From the IMG/VR virus record IMGVR_UViG_3300006919_000037: a stretch of DNA of 22,366 nucleotides. One strand, 5' to 3'. This document shows, piece after piece, positions 1,184-13,366 of this stretch (position 1 is the stretch's first letter; the number at the start of each line of letters is the position of its first letter). Position numbers and translations under genes: made by a program. The notes beneath the pieces are model-generated. The model was not told the DNA's origin, searched no databases, and saw nothing but the letters and a program-made list of their open reading frames with translations. The stretch is from a virus. Its lineage: Duplodnaviria > Heunggongvirae > Uroviricota > Caudoviricetes.

Positions 1184-2245
1184 TTAATTCCATTCAACAA
1201 ATTTGAAATCTTGTGGATCACCCAATATGAAATTACTTTCTGTTGTCTCAGGCTCGATTTCCTGAACCGTGTTAACATATTCCACCACACCCGGTTTAGC
1301 ATCTGGAGATGGTTTATTGTAATTCATATCAATCCGTTCATCCATTTTGGAGTACAGTTCAATGAATGAGTTTTTAGTAATCTCATCAAACCGGTTGATA
1401 CCAATTGTTATGGCTTTCCGTCTGTTACGGAAAATAGTGAATGCTTTGACAATATGCACCAACCTACGAGTCGATATCAGGTCACTAACGATACCATCAT
1501 TAAAATCGTTTCTGGTTTTCTCAGACCACATGGTGAGGTTTGTGGCAAATTCCTCATCAACAAACTTCAACTTCTCCATCATGTTCATGACGATCTGGTG
1601 TTCAATAACCCGTTTAGGATAGTCCTGTTCGAATGAGAAAGCAAACCGTTCAAGGAAAGCTTCATTCATATAGTTGTTCCCAACATACCGGTTATCAGTG
1701 GAACCACGACCCTTTGTATTAGCAGTGGCAATCACCATGAACCCATCAGCAGGTTGGACAACCTGACCGATTTTCTTGATGTAGATAGGACGACCATCCA
1801 GCATCTGTTGCAGGCACATGATTTTCATCATACCCATGTCAACCTCATCAAGGACCAGTACGGCACCCCGTTTCATGGCTACAACAGCAGCACCATCTTC
1901 CCACACCGTGCTACCGTCAATCAACCGGAACCCACCGATCAAATCTTCTTCACCGGTTTCCTCATCGAATGATGTGACGATACACTCACGATTCAGTTGT
2001 GCACAAACCTGTTCACACATCATGGTTTTCCCATTACCGGAATCACCTGATATGAAAATTGGTGAGAACTGTCCACTTTCCAGAATTGTCCGAATATCAC
2101 GAAAGTGACCAAACGGCACATATTCATTCACCTTGACTGGGATCAATGACCCCTTTTCGAATTCACCAATAGTAACGACTGGTTTATCTACGATCATGGC
2201 ACTCATTTTTTCAACTGTGTTTTCTTTTCTCATGGTTTGTGTCAT
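1184..2245 (-). CDS. MoxR/CobS-like AAA+ ATPase
   Basis: Walker A GDSGNGKT, Walker B VLVLDEVD, sensor ATAN, Arg-finger region FLERF, and ISTRRLV. Start uncertain (2245 or 2233). Confidence 0.9.
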   Translation of the reverse strand: MTQTMRKENTVEKMSAMIVDKPVVTIGEFEKGSLIPVKVNEYVPFGHFRDIRTILESGQFSPIFISGDSGNGKTMMCEQVCAQLNRECIVTSFDEETGEEDLIGGFRLIDGSTVWEDGAAVVAMKRGAVLVLDEVDMGMMKIMCLQQMLDGRPIYIKKIGQVVQPADGFMVIATANTKGRGSTDNRYVGNNYMNEAFLERFAFSFEQDYPKRVIEHQIVMNMMEKLKFVDEEFATNLTMWSEKTRNDFNDGIVSDLISTRRLVHIVKAFTIFRNRRKAITIGINRFDEITKNSFIELYSKMDERIDMNYNKPSPDAKPGVVEYVNTVQEIEPETTESNFILGDPQDFKFVEWN

Positions 2246-2270
2246 AGCACATTGTCCTTATGTTTGTCAA
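2241..2270 (-). promoter_or_regulatory. Possible sigma70-type early promoter for the AAA+ gene
   Basis: TTGACA-N18-TATGAC with TGTGC just upstream of the -10; overlaps the stop codon of the vWA gene. Confidence 0.35.
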
Positions 2271-4348
2271 ATCAAATCGGAGATATAATCAACATATTGT
2301 CGGATGAAAATCCGTTCCTTCTTCAGCTTATCAAAAATCTTATCACTATGTGATGTGATGTGGATACGTGGAGAGACCACAAACTCAATGTCATATCCCA
2401 CGGAGTCGAGAACTATGAAATCCTCAGTTGCAAGAGCTTTTTTTTCAATAGGCAGATAGTTCAGGTCTTTCACCAAATCGATATGAATAAGATTGACATT
2501 TTTCAGTCTCTCTTTCAGATGAAGCAAAATCAGATCATTTTCAGTTCTGATCGATTTGTTATTCAACATATAATTGGTCTCTGGATCATATGTAACAAAA
2601 TTCTTCAACACGGCACCCTCTGAATTCCTCAAACTGTCTGTTGCACAACCATCGGTTATGAATATCAGGTTATTCACCTCAGTGCTGTTCCTATTCTGAA
2701 ACCGTTGCATAATATTCTGGGAGATTAACGTAGAACCCAACAATGGAGTAGAAGACAACTTTGTGTGTCTATATGCACTGTTTGCACCCATGGTGTAAAC
2801 AACCTCACAGGCTTTGTTGAAATCCTCAATTTTCATATCACTCGACAATATTTTCCACAACTGGAATTTGGCACCTTGATCAATATTGAACATATCATCA
2901 GCTTCTTTTTCGGAAAACGGGTAACCACCTCTTTTACTATTGAAGGTGTAAATCTCAAACGGTATCCTGAGTTGACGGCAGAACATTGCAAGAGATATTG
3001 ATTTCTCAAGAACCGATTTCAGGATACTACTCATGGATGAAGACCAGTCTAGGATCATCACAAACCCGTGATTTTTACCCTTCTTGAAAACCCTCTTGGT
3101 ATTGAAAATCTTATCACTGTGCTTGTAGTTGTGCAACTTTTTGGTGTTCAGAGTCCCCTTCTGGGAGATTTTGGAATTGACCCACGACCGGGCAGCTTGT
3201 TTGGCTGTAAATTCCTTGACCATGTAGTTTACAATATGGGTCTCTGTTTTCTTCCATTTCTCGAAAACAGCACTTTTAGAGTTTGACAATTCCGGGCAAC
3301 CATTAACATGCTCCATGAAACCATCATCAACAATACATTTTTCCCAATCAGATTTGATGGATGGAACCCTATAAAATTTTCTATTCTGTGTCGATGATTG
3401 ATTGATTGTTGATTCCAACTGATCATTAAAGATGGACATCTCTTCTGGTCGGTCCAGTTCAACATCTTCATCATCTTCTTCATCTTCTTCAGTGTCACTT
3501 GGACCTGCACCATCAGATGGTTCTGACATAGATGGAAGATCAGGCTCAGTGCTATCAGGCTCAGTGCTCTCAGGCTCTTCATCATCTTCTTCAGTGTCAC
3601 TTGGACCTGCACCATCAGATGGAAAATCAGGCTCAGTGCTCTCAGGCTCAGTGCTCTCACCATCAAATTTTTCAGATGGTAATGATGGAAGAGGATTTTG
3701 TTTCTTCCGTTTCTTGGTCAACTTCTTCTCACGAAGGATCATTTCAATAGCACGATCCCTCACATCTTCCATGGTCCTCATTTTCCAAACACGATTAACG
3801 ATATCTAGTTCTTCGTCTGAAAACTCAAGACGGATGTTTTTCTCACCAATCTTATCCTTGAACAAGATCAGTTCAATCAACAGCTTCTTCTTGGTGTTGT
3901 ATGAAAATCCAACACGGGCAGAAAAGAATTCCAAACTCATCAATTCAGCACCACCGATATTGAAATCCTTCTTCGTACCGGGATACATTCTCTTGATGAA
4001 ATTGTTGATTCGAACATCTTCCAATATCTGGAAATAGTCGTTTACCACCAAAGAACTAACCTTGGTTTTTTTGACTATCTCTTTCTGATATTCAACCCAT
4101 TTCTTTGGGTCTGTGTTAATGGCATGGGAGACCTCATGACTTATAAACAAATCCAATATCTCAGGACTCACATCCCAACTGGGAATTGTGATAACCCTTC
4201 TGGCAAGATCAATGGATGCTGTTTTGGCAGTCTTGGACTGGACAATGGTCAAACGACCATCAGAGGACATCATACGTGCAAGGGCTTCCTTGGAACGTAA
4301 TTGTGTCTGGGATCGTTTGGTGTCGGGACGTTGTTTTAATTTTTGCAT
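2267..4348 (-). CDS. CobT-like protein: N-terminal HEXXH metallopeptidase-like domain, acidic repeat linker, C-terminal vWA domain
   Basis: HEVSH followed by LEDVRIN; MIDAS motif DWSSSM, plus STPL and FITDG. Adjacent to a MoxR AAA+ ATPase. ATG at 4348 preferred over TTG at 4384, which is part of a TTGACA box. Confidence 0.85.
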   Translation of the reverse strand: MQKLKQRPDTKRSQTQLRSKEALARMMSSDGRLTIVQSKTAKTASIDLARRVITIPSWDVSPEILDLFISHEVSHAINTDPKKWVEYQKEIVKKTKVSSLVVNDYFQILEDVRINNFIKRMYPGTKKDFNIGGAELMSLEFFSARVGFSYNTKKKLLIELILFKDKIGEKNIRLEFSDEELDIVNRVWKMRTMEDVRDRAIEMILREKKLTKKRKKQNPLPSLPSEKFDGESTEPESTEPDFPSDGAGPSDTEEDDEEPESTEPDSTEPDLPSMSEPSDGAGPSDTEEDEEDDEDVELDRPEEMSIFNDQLESTINQSSTQNRKFYRVPSIKSDWEKCIVDDGFMEHVNGCPELSNSKSAVFEKWKKTETHIVNYMVKEFTAKQAARSWVNSKISQKGTLNTKKLHNYKHSDKIFNTKRVFKKGKNHGFVMILDWSSSMSSILKSVLEKSISLAMFCRQLRIPFEIYTFNSKRGGYPFSEKEADDMFNIDQGAKFQLWKILSSDMKIEDFNKACEVVYTMGANSAYRHTKLSSTPLLGSTLISQNIMQRFQNRNSTEVNNLIFITDGCATDSLRNSEGAVLKNFVTYDPETNYMLNNKSIRTENDLILLHLKERLKNVNLIHIDLVKDLNYLPIEKKALATEDFIVLDSVGYDIEFVVSPRIHITSHSDKIFDKLKKERIFIRQYVDYISDLI
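3481..3660. repeat. Intragenic direct repeats encoding the acidic linker
   Basis: 40-bp exact repeat CATCTTCTTCAGTGTCACTTGGACCTGCACCATCAGATGG at 3481-3520 and 3583-3622; 15-bp units TCAGGCTCAGTGCT(C/A) at 3540, 3555, 3627 and 3642 (encoding (E/D)STEP). Confidence 0.95.
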
Positions 4349-4387
4349 GTGAATATAGCTATCAGACTTTTCGAGCCGTGTCAATAC

Positions 4388-5225: not shown

Positions 5226-5299
5226 TGGCAGGGACAGGGGGAATCGAACCCCCAACGTCTGATAGACAATCAGGCATGTTACCACTACACTATGCCCCC
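5226..5299 (-). tRNA. tRNA-Asp(GTC)
   Basis: Cloverleaf folded by hand; anticodon loop TT-GTC-TA; G73; encoded CCA. Confidence 0.9.
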
Positions 5300-5313
5300 A
5301 TTGTCAGTTTCAT

Positions 5314-5487
5314 TCAATACTTCATTGCACTCAGTGCTGCACGAAATCTCCTACCACAATCTGGTTTGAAAGTGGCACCCTGCTTAGTTCCGTAGAACTT
5401 GCAACCTGCCAGATAAACCTTGCCACGATTTTTCGACGTGGGGTGGAAGACTCGTTCTCTGTTATCTGTTATCAATACTTTAGTCAT
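5314..5487 (-). CDS. Small basic hypothetical protein, 57 aa
   Basis: MTKVLITDNRER...; GAGG RBS upstream. The track's longer start overlaps tRNA-Val and was rejected. Confidence 0.6.
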   Translation of the reverse strand: MTKVLITDNRERVFHPTSKNRGKVYLAGCKFYGTKQGATFKPDCGRRFRAALSAMKY

Positions 5488-5509
5488 TAACAACCTCATA
5501 TTATGAAAA

Positions 5510-5585
5510 TGGTGCCCGGTGTCGGAATCGAACCAACGGCATCCTGCATGTAAAACAGGCACTCTACCAACTGAGTTAACCGGGC
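5510..5585 (-). tRNA. tRNA-Val(TAC)
   Basis: Cloverleaf; loop TT-TAC-AT; A73; CCA. Confidence 0.93.
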
Positions 5586-5647: not shown

Positions 5648-6508
5648 GGGTGATATGCAATGATTTCTCTTATAACCCTCTATCGTGTCCATGATGATAT
5701 CATCAAGGTTCTTCATATATGGCAGTGATGCCTCATCATTAACCTGAAATGACGGGTCACCCACCCTAAGATCACCCATCAAAATCTTCTTCTTCTCTCC
5801 GGTCACCCTGTGATATGATTTCAGGACATCATGGATTGAGCTACCAACCCCTGTTCCGATATACCACGGCTCCCCAAGTCTGGGAAATCTACCGTGAATC
5901 ACAGCAGCCAATGCCCTACACACGTCATACACATGAACATAATCTCTCACAATATCAGGATCACCATTGATTGTCAAAGGTTTATTTGAAACCAGATTTG
6001 GAATCAGGTGTGTCTCTGGCTCATGATCCTCAACAGCATTGCATAATGGTATATGACCAGCAACATTATGCAATCTATACGTGTATGTGTATCTGTCATC
6101 CCATTTTCTGTCAAAATATTCCTCACTCATCAATTTACTGATTGCATAATGACTATCTGATACATCCACACTGGCAGAAGATACCATCACAAAATGATCA
6201 CAACTCAAACCCCCAACCAATTCATTAACCTGAACCGTGTTGAGATAAGCAAGATGTGGGTCCACATTGAAAACCGGCACTGATGAAGACCCTGCAAGAT
6301 GAAATATATAATCGTACCTGACGGCTTTCATCAATTTATGTGACCTACAATCAGTATTCCATACCATGTTGAATAGATTTCTATGTATCACATTTTCTGG
6401 GTGTTTATCATATCCATATAGTTCAATAGAATGATTCATCGGACGTGACAGGTAATATGCAAGCTGATTACCTATGTATCCACCAGCACCTGTTATCAAT
6501 ATCTTCAT
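5633..6508 (-). CDS. NAD-dependent nucleotide-sugar epimerase/dehydratase (GalE-like extended SDR)
   Basis: ITGAGGYIG Rossmann motif, HLAG, SSAS, catalytic YAISK, EDHEPETHLIP and RDYVHVYD; ATGA overlap with the NAMPT stop. Confidence 0.88.
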   Translation of the reverse strand: MKILITGAGGYIGNQLAYYLSRPMNHSIELYGYDKHPENVIHRNLFNMVWNTDCRSHKLMKAVRYDYIFHLAGSSSVPVFNVDPHLAYLNTVQVNELVGGLSCDHFVMVSSASVDVSDSHYAISKLMSEEYFDRKWDDRYTYTYRLHNVAGHIPLCNAVEDHEPETHLIPNLVSNKPLTINGDPDIVRDYVHVYDVCRALAAVIHGRFPRLGEPWYIGTGVGSSIHDVLKSYHRVTGEKKKILMGDLRVGDPSFQVNDEASLPYMKNLDDIIMDTIEGYKRNHCISPLTVA

Positions 6509-7860
6509 AATTTGGCTCTTTCCCTTACTTCTGCAAATGTTGTGGTGTTCATCATCTTACCGTTTTCATATCTCGTGGTGAATGGACCCGGTTGGATACC
6601 ACCCTTTGAGGCTTTAGAGTGATCGGTCACAGGGTCTTTCACAACATCAAACCACTGTTTGCCATTATATGATGCTGCATTGGTCTTCATTGCAAATGAC
6701 AGATCGTCACGGTTGACCTTCTGGAGCAGGCCACCACCCATACCAAAAGCCCAGTTATCAAGACTGATCTTGTTCAGTTTCATGAATGCAACTGCATATC
6801 TAACGGTCTCAAGTGTGCAACCATCACCCCAGATGGCACGAACACACGGCTCAAACACTTTGTACCCTTTACTATTCACGGTGTACTGATCAAAAGCTCC
6901 CATAATCTCTTCAGATACTTTCAACATACCTTGTGCAATATCACCAGAGTCTGGACGGATCACCAGTGTACCACCAGCAGACCTGACCTTATCTTTCAGC
7001 TTGCCACCCCACCCTTCCTTGATAGCATCCCAGATATTATAGCTATCTGACACACAAGCATAAAGCTTTCCGGGACCGGCATAGGTATCAAGGAAATGTT
7101 CAAACATCTCATACTCACGGTCCCTACCCCAGCATGTCACGGTTGAGTGTTCAGAAGCAGGGATTGAGAACCCGGCCATTTCTTCTTCATAAAATGCATA
7201 TGCACCTTCAACAGCCTCAACAGTGTCTGTACCCATGAAGTTGATCAGGTGGGCCATACCACCCAGCATAGCACTCTCACCAGATGATGCACCACGTCCA
7301 CCGAAGTCATGGAGCTTGAAAGCAATCTGCCCATCCGGATCATCAGATGTATCCTGAAGTCCCTTATAGATGATCTTCTTGACCTCACGTGATACCGTGG
7401 CAACCGTGGATGGATACCAGATTGCACGATGTAGGGCTGTTTCAATAAAGGCTGGCAACCATGGGAATCTTTTATCAGTGTTCCGGACCTGTACCAGTGG
7501 AGTCCCTAACGGCACAACTGAACCCTCATCAATTGCTTCAATGATCAGTGGGAGATGACCTTTGTATTCATTGACAATGACATCCCACGGCTTCCGGTCA
7601 AACGGCACACCATGCATCTTTAATCTTTGCTCTACATAGTCCACATCAATCTTGGTAATTGGTTTGGACAAATATGCCTTCAGATATGCTTGGAGACCGA
7701 AATAAACCATGTCATCAAACGTATCAGACTTTCGGCCTTCCACGTATGAATTCATGTACTTGATTTTCGGATCAATCAGTTGGCCATGACTGTGTTTATA
7801 ACTGTCTGCTGCCATGATAAAATTTGATGGAACTCTGTGTTCCGGATTGTTTATAAGCAT
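6505..7860 (-). CDS. nadV: Nicotinamide phosphoribosyltransferase (NAMPT)
   Basis: DSYKHSH, LHDFGGRG, PASEHS, VSDSY, VIRPDSGD, WGDG, FGMGGGLLQKVNRD and KDPVTD..KASK motifs. Confidence 0.95.
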   Translation of the reverse strand: MLINNPEHRVPSNFIMAADSYKHSHGQLIDPKIKYMNSYVEGRKSDTFDDMVYFGLQAYLKAYLSKPITKIDVDYVEQRLKMHGVPFDRKPWDVIVNEYKGHLPLIIEAIDEGSVVPLGTPLVQVRNTDKRFPWLPAFIETALHRAIWYPSTVATVSREVKKIIYKGLQDTSDDPDGQIAFKLHDFGGRGASSGESAMLGGMAHLINFMGTDTVEAVEGAYAFYEEEMAGFSIPASEHSTVTCWGRDREYEMFEHFLDTYAGPGKLYACVSDSYNIWDAIKEGWGGKLKDKVRSAGGTLVIRPDSGDIAQGMLKVSEEIMGAFDQYTVNSKGYKVFEPCVRAIWGDGCTLETVRYAVAFMKLNKISLDNWAFGMGGGLLQKVNRDDLSFAMKTNAASYNGKQWFDVVKDPVTDHSKASKGGIQPGPFTTRYENGKMMNTTTFAEVRERAKL

Positions 7861-7889
7861 TGTAATATCTCCTATTACGGTTTGTTGTC

Positions 7890-7902
7890 GGGGTCTATCC
7901 CC
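7890..7902 (-). promoter_or_regulatory. GGGG-AUAGA-CCCC hairpin in the nadV leader
   Basis: Same GGATAGACC core as the nadM leader hairpin; loop ends 33 nt before the ATG. Confidence 0.6.
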
Positions 7903-8948
7903 TATAGTTTCACCATGTCATCTATCATATCAAAATGATCCTCATACATTTGAGAACGATCAAGCTCACCAAGAGGAACCCACTCAGCATGGACGGCATC
8001 ATCAGACCCCTTAACCTTTGGCAGTTTCGGTTCATCTCTCAAATGGAAATAAAAGGCTGTTGTGATGGTTCTACCACGTTGTGACCTGTATGGGTCATCA
8101 AAGGTCTTTCTGTCCACCAGTGACCCTATCAGGACCGGTACAGGCACCTTCAGCTTGGTTTCTTCTCTCAACTCCCTGATGGAAGCATCTTTCAGCTTCT
8201 CATACTGGTTGACGAACCCACCGGGCAATGCCCACTGACCTTTACCGGGCATAGCACCCCTCTTGACCAACAGGATATGACCAGATTGCACCACGATGGC
8301 ATCAACCGTGACGAATGTTGGTGGATATGGGGAATGGGACCACTGCTGGTTATAATCGATCAGGTGCTGGTATTCATCCTGAATGAACTCAAACGACTCA
8401 GTACAATCATCCATCCACAACTCTATCCACGTTACAATGGATTTTGGCATGGAGATTTTCGGGGATGGGAACAGACCTCTGACACGGGGATTGAAAATAT
8501 CCTTACGGATATACGTTGCATCCATCACAATGTCTTGCTTGACATTGACGGACCCCCAGCTTGGGAACAGGTTGAGATAGAATGAGGATGAGTCCTTGGA
8601 GTGACCAATGAGACCAATATTGACTGGACCAGCTTTCCATTTCTTATGGATGATGTGGTTTACCTGACCCTGAATAGAGGCCAGCCACTTGTCCAGATTA
8701 TATGTGTAATCTTCTTGGAACACAAACTCCAGACGATGTTCACCTGTAAAAGCATAACAGGATTGAATCATCTCTCGACGTTCCTGTGATGTCCACGGGT
8801 TACGGAATGATCTTGGCTGGTTGTGTGAGCCAAGGACAATTATTACTTTTTCGGAGAGTTCCAGTGCCCGGTCAACAACTGCTTTGTGACCATCATGGAA
8901 AGGTTGGAATCGGCCAATGAAGACCAAATAATCATATTCATAAGACAT
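7902..8948 (-). CDS. nadM: Bifunctional NMN adenylyltransferase / ADP-ribose pyrophosphatase (NadM-Nudix, NatV-like)
   Basis: IGRFQPFHDGH (HxGH), LIGHSKDSSSFYL, and Nudix box GGFVNQYEKLKDASIRELREET. Confidence 0.95.
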   Translation of the reverse strand: MSYEYDYLVFIGRFQPFHDGHKAVVDRALELSEKVIIVLGSHNQPRSFRNPWTSQERREMIQSCYAFTGEHRLEFVFQEDYTYNLDKWLASIQGQVNHIIHKKWKAGPVNIGLIGHSKDSSSFYLNLFPSWGSVNVKQDIVMDATYIRKDIFNPRVRGLFPSPKISMPKSIVTWIELWMDDCTESFEFIQDEYQHLIDYNQQWSHSPYPPTFVTVDAIVVQSGHILLVKRGAMPGKGQWALPGGFVNQYEKLKDASIRELREETKLKVPVPVLIGSLVDRKTFDDPYRSQRGRTITTAFYFHLRDEPKLPKVKGSDDAVHAEWVPLGELDRSQMYEDHFDMIDDMVKL

Positions 8949-8973
8949 CGAAGAATCCCTTCGTTATGTGTTA

Positions 8974-8992
8974 AGACCGGTCTATCCAGTCT
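8974..8992 (-). promoter_or_regulatory. AGACUGG-AUAGA-CCGGUCU hairpin in the nadM leader
   Basis: 7-bp stem including one G-U pair; loop ends 32 nt before the ATG. Confidence 0.6.
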
Positions 8993-8999
8993 GTAAAAT

Positions 9000-9074
9000 T
9001 GGTTGCAGGGGATGGACTTGCACCACCGACCTCTTGATTATGAGTCAAGCAAGCTGCTTCTGCTCTACCCTGCA
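9000..9074 (-). tRNA. tRNA(CAT), initiator-Met-like scaffold, atypical
   Basis: TGCAGGG/CCCTGCA acceptor, A11-U24 pair, GCAACCA end; lacks the three G-C pairs in the anticodon stem; T-loop TGCAAGT. Confidence 0.8.
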
Positions 9075-9082
9075 ATACTGTT

Positions 9083-9158
9083 TGGTGCCGGATCGTGGAA
9101 TCGAACCACGTTAGCATCCTTATGAGGGATGTAAGATCACCATTACCTTCCAACCGGC
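9083..9158 (-). tRNA. tRNA(CAT), probably elongator Met
   Basis: CATCC-CTCATAA-GGATG anticodon arm resembling elongator tRNA-Met; G8 and a U6-U67 mismatch; CCA. Confidence 0.8.
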
Positions 9159-9172
9159 ATCATGTTCTATTC

Positions 9173-9179
9173 TATTTAG
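9173..9179 (-). promoter_or_regulatory. Late-type promoter variant (CTAAATA) upstream of the tRNA(CAT) pair
   Basis: CTAAATA 14 nt upstream of the tRNA 5' end. Confidence 0.45.
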
Positions 9180-9215
9180 TGTCATCATTCAACATATTCA
9201 ATACATAATCAGACA

Positions 9216-9392
9216 TCATCCACTCAACCAATCAAAAAATAACCACACTGGCCAGAAGGTTGCTATGATGAAATCTTTGAACGGATTGCCACCAACGGCA
9301 GAAAATATGGCCCAGACAAAACCAACACTGATAGCATAGAGATGTGTGACCACCAAGATAACCCACCCCCACACTGTTAGATCATACAACAT
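9216..9392 (-). CDS. Small membrane protein, 58 aa, probably 2 TM helices
   Basis: Not in the track. Manual translation MLYDLTVWGWVILVVTHLYAISVGFVWAIFSAVGGNPFKDFIIATFWPVWLFFDWLSG; the start overlaps the 3' end of the upstream ORF. Confidence 0.7.
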   Translation of the reverse strand: MLYDLTVWGWVILVVTHLYAISVGFVWAIFSAVGGNPFKDFIIATFWPVWLFFDWLSG

Positions 9393-9669
9393 TTTCGTGT
9401 TCCTTCACGGCTTCTATGATTTCATCATCATAGAGTTTCATCGGATTAAGGAAAACCATCCGGTAAAACAAGTGTTTGTCATAAGAGACCTTTTCGAATT
9501 TATCACACAATTCCAAGGCATCGGGACGGTATCCCACTGTATTGGGTCTACGAAAAATCGATTTGATAATTATTTTCCTATCTTTTGATGTCAACTCATT
9601 AGATAACAACCCAACGATTCCAACAATTAATCCAAACACAGCAATACCCATGATAATTTCCATAATCAT
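9382..9669 (-). CDS. Hypothetical protein with an N-terminal TM helix
   Basis: IIMGIAVFGLIVGIVGLL hydrophobic segment; AAAGG RBS. Confidence 0.7.
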   Translation of the reverse strand: MIMEIIMGIAVFGLIVGIVGLLSNELTSKDRKIIIKSIFRRPNTVGYRPDALELCDKFEKVSYDKHLFYRMVFLNPMKLYDDEIIEAVKEHENVV

Positions 9670-9682
9670 AACCTTTCAAAAA

Positions 9683-9757
9683 TGGTGCTCCCGACTGGAT
9701 TCGAACCAACAACCAGTCTGTTATGAGCAGACGGCTCTACCATTGAGCTACAGGAGC
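9683..9757 (-). tRNA. tRNA(CAT), probably Ile2 (lysidine type)
   Basis: Canonical cloverleaf; C4-G69 and C5-G68 pairs as in TilS substrates; A73. Identity is inferred. Confidence 0.8.
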
Positions 9758-9769
9758 ATTAAATGTCTT

Positions 9770-9843
9770 TGGTAGTCCCACAGAGATTCGAACTCCGATA
9801 TGTCACTAATCAGGTGACTGCCTTACCCTTAGACGATGGGACC
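9770..9843 (-). tRNA. tRNA-Ile(GAT)
   Basis: GTCAC-CTGATTA-GTGAC anticodon arm; T-arm CGGAG-TTCGAAT-CTCTG; CCA. Confidence 0.85.
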
Positions 9844-9844
9844 A

Positions 9845-10183
9845 TTATTCTTTTTCATCTTCATCAAAGAGAAACGGTGGAACTTTACGTGGCTCAATGG
9901 AACCGGCCCATGCACGTAACATAGAAGCTTTTATCTCATCATTAATTTGTCTATTGAAGAAACGTGAGTGATCTTCCATCTTCTCCCTAATTCTTTTCTC
10001 AGCAGATTTTCCATCCGGATAGTTGATTTTCACACAATGTATGTACAGACCGTCACCCTCATAATCAACATCAGTTTTCCAAAAATTTGGAATGAAACGT
10101 GATTTGTCTCTGTACTGAACCCAATAACAATTAATTTTGGTTTCAGACGGCACTATCCGATATTCACGTTCTTTATACTTCAT
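9845..10183 (-). CDS. Hypothetical protein
   Basis: AAGGAAG RBS before MKYKE; fills the gap between tRNA elements. Confidence 0.7.
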   Translation of the reverse strand: MKYKEREYRIVPSETKINCYWVQYRDKSRFIPNFWKTDVDYEGDGLYIHCVKINYPDGKSAEKRIREKMEDHSRFFNRQINDEIKASMLRAWAGSIEPRKVPPFLFDEDEKE

Positions 10184-10207
10184 GATCAACTTCCTTGGTT
10201 GTGTCTT

Positions 10208-10270
10208 TGGATGGGAATCGAACCCATATTTCCAGAGCTTATCTGACGTTCTACCTTAAGCTTTCACCCT
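10208..10270 (-). pseudogene. Degenerate tRNA-like remnant
   Basis: D-arm-like GCTTAAGGTAGAAC, hairpin TCAGA-TAAGC-TCTGG (5-nt loop), perfect T-arm ATGGG-TTCGATT-CCCAT followed directly by CCA; the 3' acceptor strand is missing. Confidence 0.55.
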
Positions 10271-10298
10271 ACTGTCCGTGCACTCGATTATCAACAGG

Positions 10299-10508
10299 CT
10301 ACTTTGCTATTTTTAAACTACCATCGACATGATCAACCTCTTTATTCAAGGGACAACCTTCCCAAATTTCCTTTTCGGCAACTCTGTGACTGATCACATA
10401 ATCCCATCCACCATTTGGCACCAATCCACAACTGGCTTCTTGTGGATGGTTAATGAAATGAGGACAATCATAACATCGTCTCACTTCTGTTGTCACCGTA
10501 ACCAGCAT
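10299..10508 (-). CDS. Small Cys-rich (CxxCP...C...CPL) hypothetical protein
   Basis: Four Cys arranged as a putative metal-binding site; between tRNA-Phe and the pseudo-tRNA. Confidence 0.65.
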   Translation of the reverse strand: MLVTVTTEVRRCYDCPHFINHPQEASCGLVPNGGWDYVISHRVAEKEIWEGCPLNKEVDHVDGSLKIAK

Positions 10509-10525
10509 AAAACAAAAACCTTTTT

Positions 10526-10601
10526 TGGTGCTTCCCCACAGAATCGAACTGTGACTTTCTGCTCTTCAAACAGACGTGCAGACCGACTACACCAGAGAAG
10601 C
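10526..10601 (-). tRNA. tRNA-Phe(GAA)
   Basis: TCTGT-TTGAAGA-GCAGA anticodon arm; CCA. Confidence 0.88.
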
Positions 10602-10605
10602 ATTC

Positions 10606-10722
10606 TTAATTTCTTACATATAGACCATATGTCTCAACATTCAATGGGTCTTCACCCTCAGATACCTTCTGTTGCTTGACATCACTTGCACCGGCAAAGG
10701 TACGATGTATGCTGTAGACCAC
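10606..10722 (-). CDS. Possible 38-aa ORF (GTG start)
   Basis: GGAAGGA RBS; MVYSIHRTFAGASDVKQQKVSEGEDPLNVETYGLYVRN; lies just downstream of a sigma70-like promoter. Confidence 0.4.
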   Translation of the reverse strand: MVYSIHRTFAGASDVKQQKVSEGEDPLNVETYGLYVRN

Positions 10723-10736
10723 AAAAGGGTCCTTCC

Positions 10737-10766
10737 TGTATACCACAAACATCATTACATTGTCAA
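10737..10766 (-). promoter_or_regulatory. Sigma70-like early promoter
   Basis: TTGACA-N18-TATACA with TGTGG just upstream of the -10. Confidence 0.5.
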
Positions 10767-10789
10767 GCATTTTTATCATCCTGATAGTT

Positions 10790-10863
10790 TGGCAAGGGTA
10801 CGAAGAATCGAACTCCGGTCATCTGGTTTGGAAGCAGATGTGTTACCACTACACTATACCCTC
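10790..10863 (-). tRNA. tRNA-Trp(CCA)
   Basis: Loop TT-CCA-AA, G73 discriminator; C31-C39 mismatch. Confidence 0.82.
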
Positions 10864-10872
10864 ACATAAACT

Positions 10873-10947
10873 TGGTGGGTCGAGGGAATTTCGAAATCCC
10901 GGCCAAGAGTTTAAAAGACTCCTGCTCTGCCTCTGAGCTACCGACCC
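10873..10947 (-). tRNA. tRNA-Lys(TTT)
   Basis: GGAGT-CTTTTAA-ACTCT anticodon arm; CCA. Confidence 0.92.
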
Positions 10948-10957
10948 ATTAATTCTT

Positions 10958-11032
10958 TGGTACACCGGGTGGGGGTCGAACCCACGGCCTTGAGTTTAAG
11001 AGACTCCTGCTCTACCACTGAGCTACCGGTGT
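10958..11032 (-). tRNA. tRNA-Lys(CTT)
   Basis: GGAGT-CTCTTAA-ACTCA anticodon arm; CCA. Confidence 0.92.
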
Positions 11033-11037
11033 ATATT

Positions 11038-11355
11038 TTACTTCCCGTAATTCGTCATCCAATTCAACAGATAATCACGGGCTTCGTATTTGTCAAATCC
11101 AAACTCTTCCTTGAGATATGGACCTGCTCCCATCATATTAGTTTCACCACTACGTCGAAGTGTTTCCAGAAATTCTGCAACATCTGCAACAGTATCTTCA
11201 TCCAACGTCATGATCATCTTCCTTCCAGTTCCATTACAGGCATCACACTTAGGTGACCCATTATGATCGTATTTTCCAGAACCATTACATGCAATACAAC
11301 GATTGTCAAGTTCTTTTTTCGGTTCTCTCTGGACTATACAATCCTTACGTTTCAT
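11038..11355 (-). CDS. Hypothetical protein: DnaJ-type CxxCxGxG zinc-finger pair plus a C-terminal SGETNMMGA domain
   Basis: CIACNGSG and CDACNGTG; start MKRKDC overlaps the upstream stop. Confidence 0.75.
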   Translation of the reverse strand: MKRKDCIVQREPKKELDNRCIACNGSGKYDHNGSPKCDACNGTGRKMIMTLDEDTVADVAEFLETLRRSGETNMMGAGPYLKEEFGFDKYEARDYLLNWMTNYGK

Positions 11356-11536
11356 AATCGTAACCAACCTTTTCCTCAAACATAGTAAAACCAAGTTTGT
11401 TGGCTTCATATTCTGCAATAATCAGATTTATATGTCCACCAGTATTACCCCATTTGGATTGACCAGACCATTTAAGACCTTTTTCCATCATACCCACTGC
11501 AACACCTTTGGGTGCTAACTCAAGCTTAATCTTCAT
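11345..11536 (-). CDS. Hypothetical protein, paralog B of a tandem pair
   Basis: MKIKLELAPKGVAVG...IAEYEANKLGFTMF; AAGGTAG RBS. Confidence 0.8.
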   Translation of the reverse strand: MKIKLELAPKGVAVGMMEKGLKWSGQSKWGNTGGHINLIIAEYEANKLGFTMFEEKVGYDYET

Positions 11537-11714
11537 TATCTACCTTCCAATCAAATAACGTGAAACCAAGTTTGTTGGCTTCATACTCTGCAATCACAGC
11601 AGGTATGGCTGCATCCTTCATCTGAGACTGTGCAACCCACTCACGGGCTTTGGTCATCAGACCCTCTGCAAGACCTACAGGGCACAACTCAAGCTTAATC
11701 TTCATTATCTACCT
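11388..11714. repeat. Direct repeats from a tandem gene duplication
   Basis: 29-bp exact repeat at 11517-11545 and 11686-11714; 32-bp repeat with 1 mismatch at 11388-11419 and 11563-11594. Confidence 0.9.
11526..11705 (-). CDS. Hypothetical protein, paralog A of a tandem pair (59 aa)
   Basis: Not in the track. MKIKLELCPVGLAEGLMTKAREWVAQSQMKDAAIPAVIAEYEANKLGFTLFDWKVDNED; GAGGTAG RBS; clear similarity to 11345-11536. Confidence 0.8.
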   Translation of the reverse strand: MKIKLELCPVGLAEGLMTKAREWVAQSQMKDAAIPAVIAEYEANKLGFTLFDWKVDNED

Positions 11715-11715
11715 C

Positions 11716-11967
11716 TCAGACATAATACGACAGGTTGGACCCATCCTTGAAATCGATGGTGAAACCATCATAAAAATCGTTATGGGCTTCAACCAGTTCA
11801 TACTTCCATTCATCAATGATGGCATGGAATGCACCTGAATGGTGCTGTCCAAGGTGACCTTCCATCTTGGTGTACTTGGCAAGATCAGCAATGGTGACTG
11901 TTCCATCACCGGGTGCTGGTGTTGATACCAAGTGATACCGATTTGCAATATCCTTAACCTTCATCAT
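11716..11967 (-). CDS. Hypothetical protein
   Basis: GAGGTGG RBS before MMKVKD; overlaps the upstream ORF end. Confidence 0.7.
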   Translation of the reverse strand: MMKVKDIANRYHLVSTPAPGDGTVTIADLAKYTKMEGHLGQHHSGAFHAIIDEWKYELVEAHNDFYDGFTIDFKDGSNLSYYV

Positions 11968-12148
11968 CCACCTCTGGGGGATTTTCATAACCCCTCATAT
12001 ATTCCTTCACACATTCTTCCTTCTCAGACCTCATCCCAAAATGACACCCGTAGTGTGCATTGAGACCGGTCAGACGATCCAGTTGACCACGTTCAAACTG
12101 GTCTTGGAGCATCTGCTTTTTGTATGCTTCAAATTCATTATCCATCAT
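11954..12148 (-). CDS. Hypothetical protein
   Basis: AAAGGA RBS before MMDNEF. Confidence 0.7.
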   Translation of the reverse strand: MMDNEFEAYKKQMLQDQFERGQLDRLTGLNAHYGCHFGMRSEKEECVKEYMRGYENPPEVDDEG

Positions 12149-12158
12149 CAATCCTTTC

Positions 12159-12548
12159 TCAGACGAAAAACTTCTCAACAACCTGCTTCAGTTCAGCTTC
12201 ATAGTCTGCATACGACAGACCGAAGTGGAAGCAGATGTAACCACCACCATACCGGAAGTCCATCTCATCAAGGTCTTCCCCATCAAGTATCCACCGGATG
12301 GCATCTTCACGATCCTTTGCACCCAGAGCAATGGTCTTGGTGATCCGGTTTTCGAAGTCGATCCCACGAGCATAGTGGAAGCACTCTTCTTCGTTAATGC
12401 TATCCTGTGCACTTTCTGCAACCTGATCCCAAATGATCTGCTTTTCATCAGCAGACGTTTCTGGGTCATAGAACCGGTGACTACGTGGACGGCTTCCAAA
12501 AGCTTCCTTGTACATGTCACTGAAAATGTTCTCATCAAATGTGTACAT
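12159..12548 (-). CDS. Hypothetical phage protein (SDMYKEAFGSRPR motif), 129 aa
   Basis: First ORF after the sigma70-like promoter; AAGGG RBS. The track's start at 12602 is the TTG of the -35 box. Confidence 0.75.
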   Translation of the reverse strand: MYTFDENIFSDMYKEAFGSRPRSHRFYDPETSADEKQIIWDQVAESAQDSINEEECFHYARGIDFENRITKTIALGAKDREDAIRWILDGEDLDEMDFRYGGGYICFHFGLSYADYEAELKQVVEKFFV

Positions 12549-12574
12549 CGTTTTTTCCCTTTCTCTATGACCCC

Positions 12575-12602
12575 ATAATAGCAGATTGGGAAACTGTGTC
12601 AA
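12575..12602 (-). promoter_or_regulatory. Sigma70-like early promoter
   Basis: TTGACA-N16-TATTAT with TG upstream of the -10, directly after a terminator. Confidence 0.7.
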
Positions 12603-12606
12603 GCAT

Positions 12607-12643
12607 AAAAAAAGCCCCAGTGAGATTTTCTCAACCGGGGCTT
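12607..12643 (-). terminator. Rho-independent terminator
   Basis: GCCCCGGTTGAG-AAAAT-CTCACTGGGGC followed by TTTTTTT. Confidence 0.85.
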
Positions 12644-12665
12644 CTGTATCTGGAAGTTGGGATGC

Positions 12666-12770
12666 TTACAATGCTGTCCCGTCTATTCCTGCACACACAA
12701 AGGCACCGGTCCCGGTTTTGATAAACCAAGGTGATCCAACTATAATAATTGGTTTCATTTTACGTTGCAT
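12666..12770 (-). CDS. Possible 34-aa ORF
   Basis: MQRKMKPIIIVGSPWFIKTGTGAFVCAGIDGTAL, between tRNA-Gly and the terminator; weak AGAGAG RBS. Confidence 0.35.
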   Translation of the reverse strand: MQRKMKPIIIVGSPWFIKTGTGAFVCAGIDGTAL

Positions 12771-12791
12771 TTGTATGTCTCTCTTAAAAAT

Positions 12792-12865
12792 TGGAGCAGG
12801 TATGGAGAATCGAACTCCACTACTTAGCTTGGAAGGCTAGTACATTGCCACTATGCTATACCTGC
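12792..12865 (-). tRNA. tRNA-Gly(TCC)
   Basis: Loop CT-TCC-AA, U73, CCA. Confidence 0.93.
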
Positions 12866-12875
12866 ATTATTCGTT

Positions 12876-13052
12876 TTATTCTACAGTTCCATGTCTGACA
12901 TAATTGAAAAGTCTTTGAGCCTTCTGTATGGCCTCACGTGGCACACCAACAGCTTCTGTTCCACCAACAATCTTCAGACATTCCAGACGAAGTTCGATAT
13001 TCTGAAATTCATCCATTTCTTCTTTCGAAGGCATTTGATCAAGATTTATCAT
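12876..13052 (-). CDS. Hypothetical protein, 58 aa
   Basis: Not in the track. MINLDQMPSKEEMDEFQNIELRLECLKIVGGTEAVGVPREAIQKAQRLFNYVRHGTVE; fills the gap between tRNA-Pro and tRNA-Gly. Confidence 0.65.
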   Translation of the reverse strand: MINLDQMPSKEEMDEFQNIELRLECLKIVGGTEAVGVPREAIQKAQRLFNYVRHGTVE

Positions 13053-13075
13053 TCTGTTTCTTTCATGTCAATAAT

Positions 13076-13152
13076 TGGTCTAGGTAGAGGGATTCGAACC
13101 CCCGGTCTTCTGGTCCCAAACCAGACGGATTACCATGCTTTCCCATACCTAG
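13076..13152 (-). tRNA. tRNA-Pro(TGG)
   Basis: Loop TT-TGG-GA, C1-G72, A73, CCA. Confidence 0.92.
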
Positions 13153-13161
13153 ATAGGTTTT

Positions 13162-13269
13162 TTATTTTACTGGGTCTTCAGTGCCAACTGGACCAGCAGG
13201 TCCACAACCGGTTAGAACAGTTCCAGTAACTGCCACTGCAAGCAGGGCTAGAAGGGCATAAACTTTCAT
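13162..13269 (-). CDS. Mini-lipoprotein, 35 aa (signal peptide II, lipobox LTGC)
   Basis: Not in the track. MKVYALLALLAVAVTGTVLTG-CGPAGPVGTEDPVK; AGGA RBS; ATAAATA upstream. Confidence 0.75.
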   Translation of the reverse strand: MKVYALLALLAVAVTGTVLTGCGPAGPVGTEDPVK

Positions 13270-13285
13270 TTTCATTTTCCTATTT

Positions 13286-13292
13286 TATTTAT
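13286..13292 (-). promoter_or_regulatory. Late promoter (ATAAATA) overlapping the last A of the tRNA-Ala CCA
   Basis: CCATAAATA at the tRNA 3' end, upstream of the mini-lipoprotein. Confidence 0.5.
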
Positions 13293-13366
13293 GGTGGAGT
13301 GCCGGGGAATCGAACCCCGAATATCTGGTTGCAAACCAAATGTGTTCCCGTTAGCACTAGCACCCC
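13292..13366 (-). tRNA. tRNA-Ala(TGC)
   Basis: G3-U70 wobble, anticodon TGC, A73, CCA. Confidence 0.94.

Follow-up and report, generated by a model that had tools for sequence, protein, structure and literature searches.

A candidate two-hairpin mRNA element in front of NAD-salvage genes of phages and bacteria

How is the dose of a phage pathway set when the pathway itself is harmful? The pair of NadV and a nicotinamide mononucleotide (NMN) adenylyltransferase (NMNAT) constitutes NARP2, a phage pathway that rebuilds nicotinamide adenine dinucleotide (NAD+) against NAD-depleting defence, and which uses up phosphoribosyl pyrophosphate (PRPP), overproduces NAD+ and is toxic in Escherichia coli (Osterman et al., bioRxiv 10.1101/2024.02.11.579819). 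Because the pathway is costly or toxic, there is reason to regulate the NAD-salvage genes. We know of no account of how phages or bacteria dose NARP2. The question is raised by a 22,366-nucleotide stretch of Caudoviricetes DNA from IMG/VR virus record IMGVR_UViG_3300006919_000037, hereafter the window, which is the minus strand of a 118.8-kb phage record with a completeness estimate of 68%, and in which nadM and nadV are each preceded by a leader with two small hairpins, termed P1 and P2. With a probability of roughly 0.8, we conclude that these leaders are two instances of a widely conserved two-hairpin mRNA element, as yet uncatalogued, through which NAD-salvage genes are regulated jointly at the start of translation. 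The regulatory role is deduced from conservation of sequence and structure, and should be read in that light.

Two hairpins before nadM and nadV

A sequence-only reading of the window had proposed that hairpins with an identical GG-AUAGA-CC core stand before both NAD-salvage genes, 32 and 33 nucleotides (nt) from their start codons. Both hairpins were found at these distances on the minus strand, and the identities of the two genes were borne out by Pfam domains. The features are as follows; R2 and R3 are models of the element, and P1 and P2 were taken from the sequence and the minimum-free-energy fold.

8947..8993, minus strand: nadM leader, whole model match (R3 24.0 bits, E 0.002, full-length alignment; R2 18.3 bits)
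8974..8992, minus strand: nadM P1, AGACUGG-AUAGA-CCGGUCU (-9.0 kcal/mol)
8964..8973, minus strand: nadM linker, UAACACAUAA, without G (from the sequence)
8949..8963, minus strand: nadM P2, CGAAG-GGAUU-CUUCG (-3.6 kcal/mol)
7902..8948, minus strand: nadM/natV, NMN adenylyltransferase plus Nudix ADP-ribose pyrophosphatase, 348 amino acids (Pfam CTP_transf_like 1.8e-13, NUDIX 3.6e-21)
7861..7906, minus strand: nadV leader, whole model match (R3 41.5 bits, E 2.8e-7)
7890..7902, minus strand: nadV P1, GGGG-AUAGA-CCCC (-6.7 kcal/mol)
7862..7878, minus strand: nadV P2, GUAAUA-GGAGA-UAUUAC (-2.3 kcal/mol)
6505..7860, minus strand: nadV, nicotinamide phosphoribosyltransferase, 451 amino acids (Pfam NAMPT_N 1.6e-17, NAPRTase 2.5e-46)

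Minimum-free-energy folding gives exactly P1 and P2 in both leaders, with z-scores of -2.8 and -2.2. The P1 stem of nadM has 7 bp including one U-G pair, its arms AGACUGG (8992-8986) and CCGGUCU (8980-8974) enclosing an AUAGA pentaloop (8985-8981) of the form A-N-A-G-A with a G-C closing pair, 32 nt from the AUG at 8948. In the nadV leader, GGGG (7902-7899) and CCCC (7893-7890) enclose the same AUAGA (7898-7894), 33 nt from the AUG at 7860. The layout first envisaged, a single stem followed by a tail and the ribosome-binding site, held for P1 but overlooked P2, which carries the Shine-Dalgarno sequence in its loop and ends 0-1 nt before AUG: the P2 loop of nadM holds the ribosome-binding purines, with AUG directly 3' of the stem, and that of nadV displays GGAG, with AUG 1 nt past the stem. 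A Shine-Dalgarno-in-loop hairpin is not a general feature of other genes in the window phage. Of the four occurrences of GGATAGACC in the 118.8-kb record, the nadM and nadV copies alone fold into a hairpin within an intergenic leader. Neither hairpin is followed by a U-tract, and neither is a terminator.

Conservation and gene specificity of the element

Relatives were drawn from 93 IMG/VR loci collected via NadV (40-73% identity), in nearly all of which nadM lies upstream of nadV; no close relative of the window phage was found among GenBank phages. Some 100 phage and bacterial loci have the same arrangement of P1, a G-poor linker and P2 before nadM and nadV, at NadV identities of just 40-50%, and the raw, unaligned leaders already repeat the same order: P1, a short G-poor linker, an A/U-rich P2 around GGAGU, and AUG. 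Across the family P1 has 7-8 bp of arbitrary sequence (-7.3 ± 2.7 kcal/mol) and an A-N-A-G-A pentaloop closed by G-C, of which G-AUAGA-C is the commonest form, or by C-G, as in C-AGAGA-G and C-AGUGA-G. Loop bases A1, G4 and A5 are invariant in all 73-74 distinct leaders that have letters there (78 in total, the remainder being gapped), and positions 2 and 3 vary. P2 has 5-6 A/U-rich bp (-3.7 ± 1.4 kcal/mol) and a 5-nt loop with GGAG, and ends 0-3 nt before AUG, so that the Shine-Dalgarno sequence and the start codon belong to the conserved structure. The linker between the hairpins is single-stranded and 5-13 nt long, with a mode of 7. The ACA-N3-AAC motif ascribed to it in the sequence-only reading is not conserved in sequence across the family, although the composition is kept (A 48%, U 29%, C 20%, G 3%).

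A gapless seed of 17 leaders yielded model R1, a plain MAFFT alignment having split the 3' arm of P1; in loci oriented on nadV, 109/109 R1 matches fell on the gene strand. Model R3, trained on 98 leaders that exclude those of the window, was searched with filters off against both strands of the whole window. Behind the nadV and nadM leaders, with the scores given above, the next match reached 11.3 bits, and no further copy was found by model search in the rest of the 118.8-kb record. Both window copies combine an A-N-A-G-A P1, a Shine-Dalgarno-in-loop P2, a significant R3 score and a NAD-salvage gene directly downstream on the same strand. The lower score of the nadM copy is explained by an atypical P2 loop, GGAUU instead of GGAGU.

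The proposal of a new cis-regulatory RNA had been tied beforehand to covariation as the test that could refute it. Compensatory changes were found: in model-based alignments of 80 and 98 leaders, where fitting to the model favours structure, all 14 base pairs vary on both sides, and 91% of cells are paired, against 48% in shuffles and at most 51% with the partners slid. Double changes are seen in 471 to 590 cells, where 152 to 183 would be expected. The unaligned leader lists show the same pairs. Family stems also contain G-U pairs, which, together with the matches being on the gene strand only, indicates an RNA rather than a DNA element. In the mutual-information analysis of the family alignment the stem pairs rank first; beyond the stems, only the closing pair is linked with loop position 2, and no signal was seen for a pseudoknot or a loop-linker contact, in line with the earlier failure to see a loop-Shine-Dalgarno pseudoknot. 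A by-eye pairing of the P1 loop with the 3' arm of P2 was dropped as it held in some clades only, and T-loop, iron-responsive-element-like and boxB-like readings of the pentaloop were set aside as the sequence gives them no support. In a few copies (L082 before nadM; L126 and L043/L045 before nadV) the P1 loop is GGAGU or GGAGA, the same as the Shine-Dalgarno loop of P2; such identical loops hint at two equivalent binding sites.

The element is strongly associated with NAD-salvage genes. When all IMG/VR contigs were searched with two exact patterns blind to gene content, 10/12 and 21/23 matches lay directly before nadM or nadV (24 of the 28 distinct matches when pooled). By a simple rule for P1 plus P2, the pair precedes 38% of 331 NAD-gene leaders and 0.9% of 850 other Shine-Dalgarno genes of the same loci; among the eight non-NAD exceptions, six are nadV from an alternative start codon or extra genes of the NAD cluster. 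A Shine-Dalgarno sequence held in a loop is not a general habit of the other genes in the fetched loci either (17% against 71%). In five whole bacterial genomes searched at E<=0.1, five matches were obtained in four genomes, all of them in contigs of the nadM/nadV locus, while the fifth, a known carrier of the motif, gave no match at that threshold. A model search of 151 whole genomes was too insensitive to inform on distribution, even a known positive genome giving no match. Every locus examined that has the element also has NadM and NadV; NadM proved to be present in 5/5 records where it was seemingly missing, and no genome with the element but without NadM was found among them.

Bacterial carriers cover Cyanobacteria, Campylobacterota, Alphaproteobacteria and Gammaproteobacteria: the leader stands before nadM and/or nadV in a Xenococcaceae cyanobacterium, in Sulfurovum, Sulfuricurvum and another Epsilonproteobacteria bacterium (Campylobacterota), and in Thiothrix, Rhodospirillales and several marine Gammaproteobacteria. 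Six cultured phages were examined. Roseobacter phage DSS3P8 (KT870145.1) has strong copies before gp110 (NadM) and gp112 (NadV), at 44 and 40 bits (L199:1708-1754 and 3099-3145), and Xanthomonas phage X1 has weak copies at the expected places; the other four are considered below.

Several leaders precede further genes of these loci. A 213-amino-acid protein without a Pfam domain (phrog_1843, function unknown), encoded just upstream of nadM, has its own full leader at 38.9-40 bits (L085:615-1253, L038:158-799) which makes it a possible addition to the NAD-salvage regulon. An SPFH/Band-7 gene located downstream of nadV likewise bears a separate leader in marine Gammaproteobacteria (L166:5082-6110, L149:6002-7030; a broken copy at L148:4978). 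A leader also precedes a 108-amino-acid protein (phrog_12218, function unknown; L195:915-1238) and an unidentified open reading frame of 202 amino acids (L211, minus strand, near 1167-1199).

Genomic setting of the two copies

The neighbours that bear on the transcript of the window copies are these:

9000..9074, minus strand: tRNA-Met gene (ARAGORN and Rfam), its 3' end 7 nt before nadM P1
5633..6508, minus strand: gene of the NAD-dependent epimerase/dehydratase family (open reading frame list; Pfam Epimerase 6e-18)

A promoter scan returned no promoter-like site upstream of either window copy. Because of this, and because the nadM copy begins 7 nt after a tRNA gene, we place both copies inside one long polycistronic tRNA-nadM-nadV transcript, and control in the window phage must therefore be post-transcriptional. 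Since the scan gave no promoter-like site between the tRNAs and nadM either, the 5' end of the nadM mRNA may derive from tRNA processing. Among the 93 phage copies, 19 have a strong sigma-70-like promoter a few nt before P1, compared to 2/93 control positions; as these are promoter-proximal and the window copies transcript-internal, the common denominator is translation initiation.

The nadM stop codon UAG shares its final base with the nadV P1 stem, whose first G it supplies (window 7899-7904). Every ribosome finishing nadM must therefore open this P1, and the shared base may couple the two genes. The epimerase-family gene overlaps the end of nadV by 4 nt, belongs to the same operon and has no leader of its own, and it is probably translationally coupled to nadV. 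The window holds 13 tRNA genes, 11 on the same strand directly upstream of nadM (9000-13366) and 2 downstream (5226-5585); three of the 13 have a CAT anticodon, and the tRNA at 9083-9158 scores just 30.6 bits. Further along, on the strand of the NAD genes (window 1184-4384), a MoxR-like AAA_5 ATPase of 353 amino acids lies downstream of a 705-amino-acid protein without a Pfam match.

Candidate readers, rival explanations and known RNAs

In the mechanism that we propose, GGAG held in a 5-nt loop could not pair with 16S rRNA until the weak P2 opens, and P2 would form a tunable barrier to 30S binding. P1 would be the specificity element, recruiting a reader that recognizes the invariant bases of its loop and probably those of the P2 loop as well. 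By stabilizing or releasing P2, the reader would match the joint output of nadM, nadV and a few adjacent NAD genes to the current NAD pool.

If the element is regulatory, we favour a protein as the reader at a little short of even odds, because only bases of the hairpin loops are conserved and because the pattern N-N-A-G-N is common to the two loops, which in some copies are identical. The most economical candidate would be an oligomeric NadV or NadM-Nudix protein whose RNA binding is modulated by a NAD-related ligand in the manner of PyrR, since these proteins are always present, are oligomeric and already bind NAD-related ligands. The PyrR binding loops of the Bacillus pyr operon (RF00515) are likewise hairpins with purine-rich apical loops repeated before successive genes of one pathway, and are read by an operon-encoded, enzyme-like protein modulated by pathway nucleotides. 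The PyrR loop consensus contains CCAGAGAGG, as do many P1 copies. In other respects the two differ: the commonest P1 loop, G-AUAGA-C, misfits the PyrR consensus, RF00515 extends over 115 positions, PyrR acts mainly by antitermination, and no PyrR homologue is implied for the NAD element. An RF00515 site was accordingly rejected as its identity, as it matched neither the 118.8-kb record nor any of nine motif-rich loci, while the Bacillus, Thermus and Lactococcus controls were positive.

Other protein-bound RNAs share parts of this design. In the MS2 coat protein hairpin, the T4 gene 43 operator and the E. coli thrS operator, the loop and not the stem is recognized, the hairpin overlaps the Shine-Dalgarno sequence or lies a short way upstream of it, and translation is repressed; each of these serves one gene or phage lineage, however, whereas the NAD element serves a small regulon in many phages and several bacterial phyla. 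CsrA/RsmE sites resemble it in having a loop GGA that overlaps the Shine-Dalgarno sequence and a further site some 20 nt upstream, with a dimer as the binding protein, but the P1 loop has mostly AGA rather than GGA, and a global regulator leaves the restriction to NAD genes unexplained.

By the precedent of the guanidine-II riboswitch (mini-ykkC), a mechanism driven by ligand alone is nearly as likely as a protein reader. The element may tentatively be taken for a new miniature riboswitch class, in which a small NAD-related ligand (nicotinamide, NMN, NAD+ or ADP-ribose) joins both pentaloops without protein and alters access to the Shine-Dalgarno sequence. It is found in phages and across four or more bacterial phyla, in each case in cis to NAD genes, a portability typical of riboswitches; with A1, G4, A5, the closing pair and GGAG it has about as many invariant bases as guanidine-II; the short flexible linker permits side-by-side hairpins; and no dedicated regulator gene is conserved beside the cassette in 80 bacterial loci, where an NrtR-like regulator that excludes the motif was looked for, a comparison made uninformative by spurious open reading frames in GC-rich DNA. 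Guanidine-II also has two small hairpins with free stems, conserved loops and closing pairs, and a variable linker, situated at the ribosome-binding site. Its ACGR loops pair with each other, however, which the A-N-A-G-A and GGAGU loops of the element cannot do, both loops being nearly all purine and offering no Watson-Crick kissing pairs. The element also has variable bases at loop positions 2 and 3 and lacks a conserved junction and tertiary covariation, and guanidine-II differs in ligand and gene context. Guanidine-II was rejected as the identity of the window leaders, in which ACGR tetraloops are absent, the loops are AUAGA and GGAGA/GGAUU, and Rfam gives no match.

The known NAD+ riboswitches are likewise cis-acting RNAs in leaders of NAD genes, but they have internal loops, a pseudoknot and many conserved bases, and occur in Acidobacteria and Streptococcus before nadA and pnuC. 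In NAD+-II, too, the ribosome-binding site and an A-rich strand take part (PMC7749635, PMC10085692), and its published structure in leaders of Streptococcus pnuC, made up of P1, P1a and a pseudoknot (PMC7749635), does not fit the window leaders. Consistent with this, neither NAD+-I (the nadA motif, with tandem bulged-stem domains) nor NAD+-II (the pnuC motif, whose pseudoknot engages the ribosome-binding site) was matched when the window was compared with all 4227 families of Rfam 15 by cmscan, and no pseudoknot signal supports the latter. No family matched at the leaders, at the gathering score or at E<=10, the rest of the output being only tRNAs and noise; none matched at the leaders of the nine motif-rich loci, and no description of the element was found in the open literature searched. 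Novelty as a cis-regulatory RNA, the central claim of the sequence-only reading, is thus supported by covariation, by specificity for NAD genes and by the lack of an Rfam family. That the element is a third NAD-related riboswitch class, the first from two bare hairpin loops and shared by phages and bacteria, which would respond to nicotinamide or a different metabolite of NAD breakdown or salvage by turning on NAD reconstitution once NADase defences (Thoeris, DSR and SIR2 types) destroy host NAD+, is a more specific proposal and a rather doubtful one.

Several observations weigh against translational co-regulation through a protein reader. The element is absent from four cultured phages that do have nadV (KVP40, Salmonella phage Arash, Stenotrophomonas phage DLP_6 and Aeromonas phage SW69-9), so the enzymes do not need it, and the element is frequent in the pathway, not obligatory. 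The covariation counts come from model-fitted alignments. Pfam detects no RNA-binding domain in NadM or NadV, and a comparison of these proteins between motif-bearing and motif-free loci brought out no separating residues, only clade-like differences. Finally, guanidine-II suggests by analogy that conservation of two small loops is compatible with a riboswitch.

It is improbable that the leaders are a constitutive cassette without a sensor, in which P1 guards the mRNA 5' end or marks processing, the linker is a standby or enhancer strand, P2 displays the Shine-Dalgarno sequence, and the link with NAD arises by co-movement. CA-rich unstructured leaders are translation enhancers, and in the 19/93 phage copies with a promoter just before it P1 would be 5'-terminal. 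Both window copies are transcript-internal, however; while the stems drift, three loop bases stay unchanged in hosts from several phyla, which points to specific recognition; and the element stands before two unrelated genes and a few genes of the NAD area, almost never before other genes of the same genomes. A DNA-level site, be it an NrtR-, NiaR- or NadR-type operator, a phage promoter element or a chance palindrome, can hardly be entertained: read as DNA, the P1 region forms an inverted repeat, and palindromic DNA sites are what the known bacterial NAD regulators bind, but here the half-sites are unconserved and the asymmetric spacer (the loop) is conserved, the stems have G-U pairs and match on the gene strand only, the position is fixed to AUG and not to promoters, and the R3 scores exclude a chance palindrome.

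NARP2 lets phages rebuild NAD+ and escape NAD-depleting immunity at the cost of PRPP drain and NAD+ overproduction, and the two known NAD+ riboswitches belong to other taxa and other genes. To our knowledge, all classical bacterial NAD regulators (NadR, NiaR and NrtR) act on DNA. The identity of the reader would give either a new minimal riboswitch or a metabolic enzyme doubling as an RNA-binding regulator, and phage DSS3P8 on Ruegeria pomeroyi DSS-3 is a cultured, tractable system for experiments. The element may also serve as a signpost, marking phrog_1843, phrog_12218 and the SPFH protein as candidates for roles in NAD metabolism or counter-defence. Found almost only before these genes, across phages and several phyla, the RNA element probably marks an NAD-salvage regulon at the RNA level.

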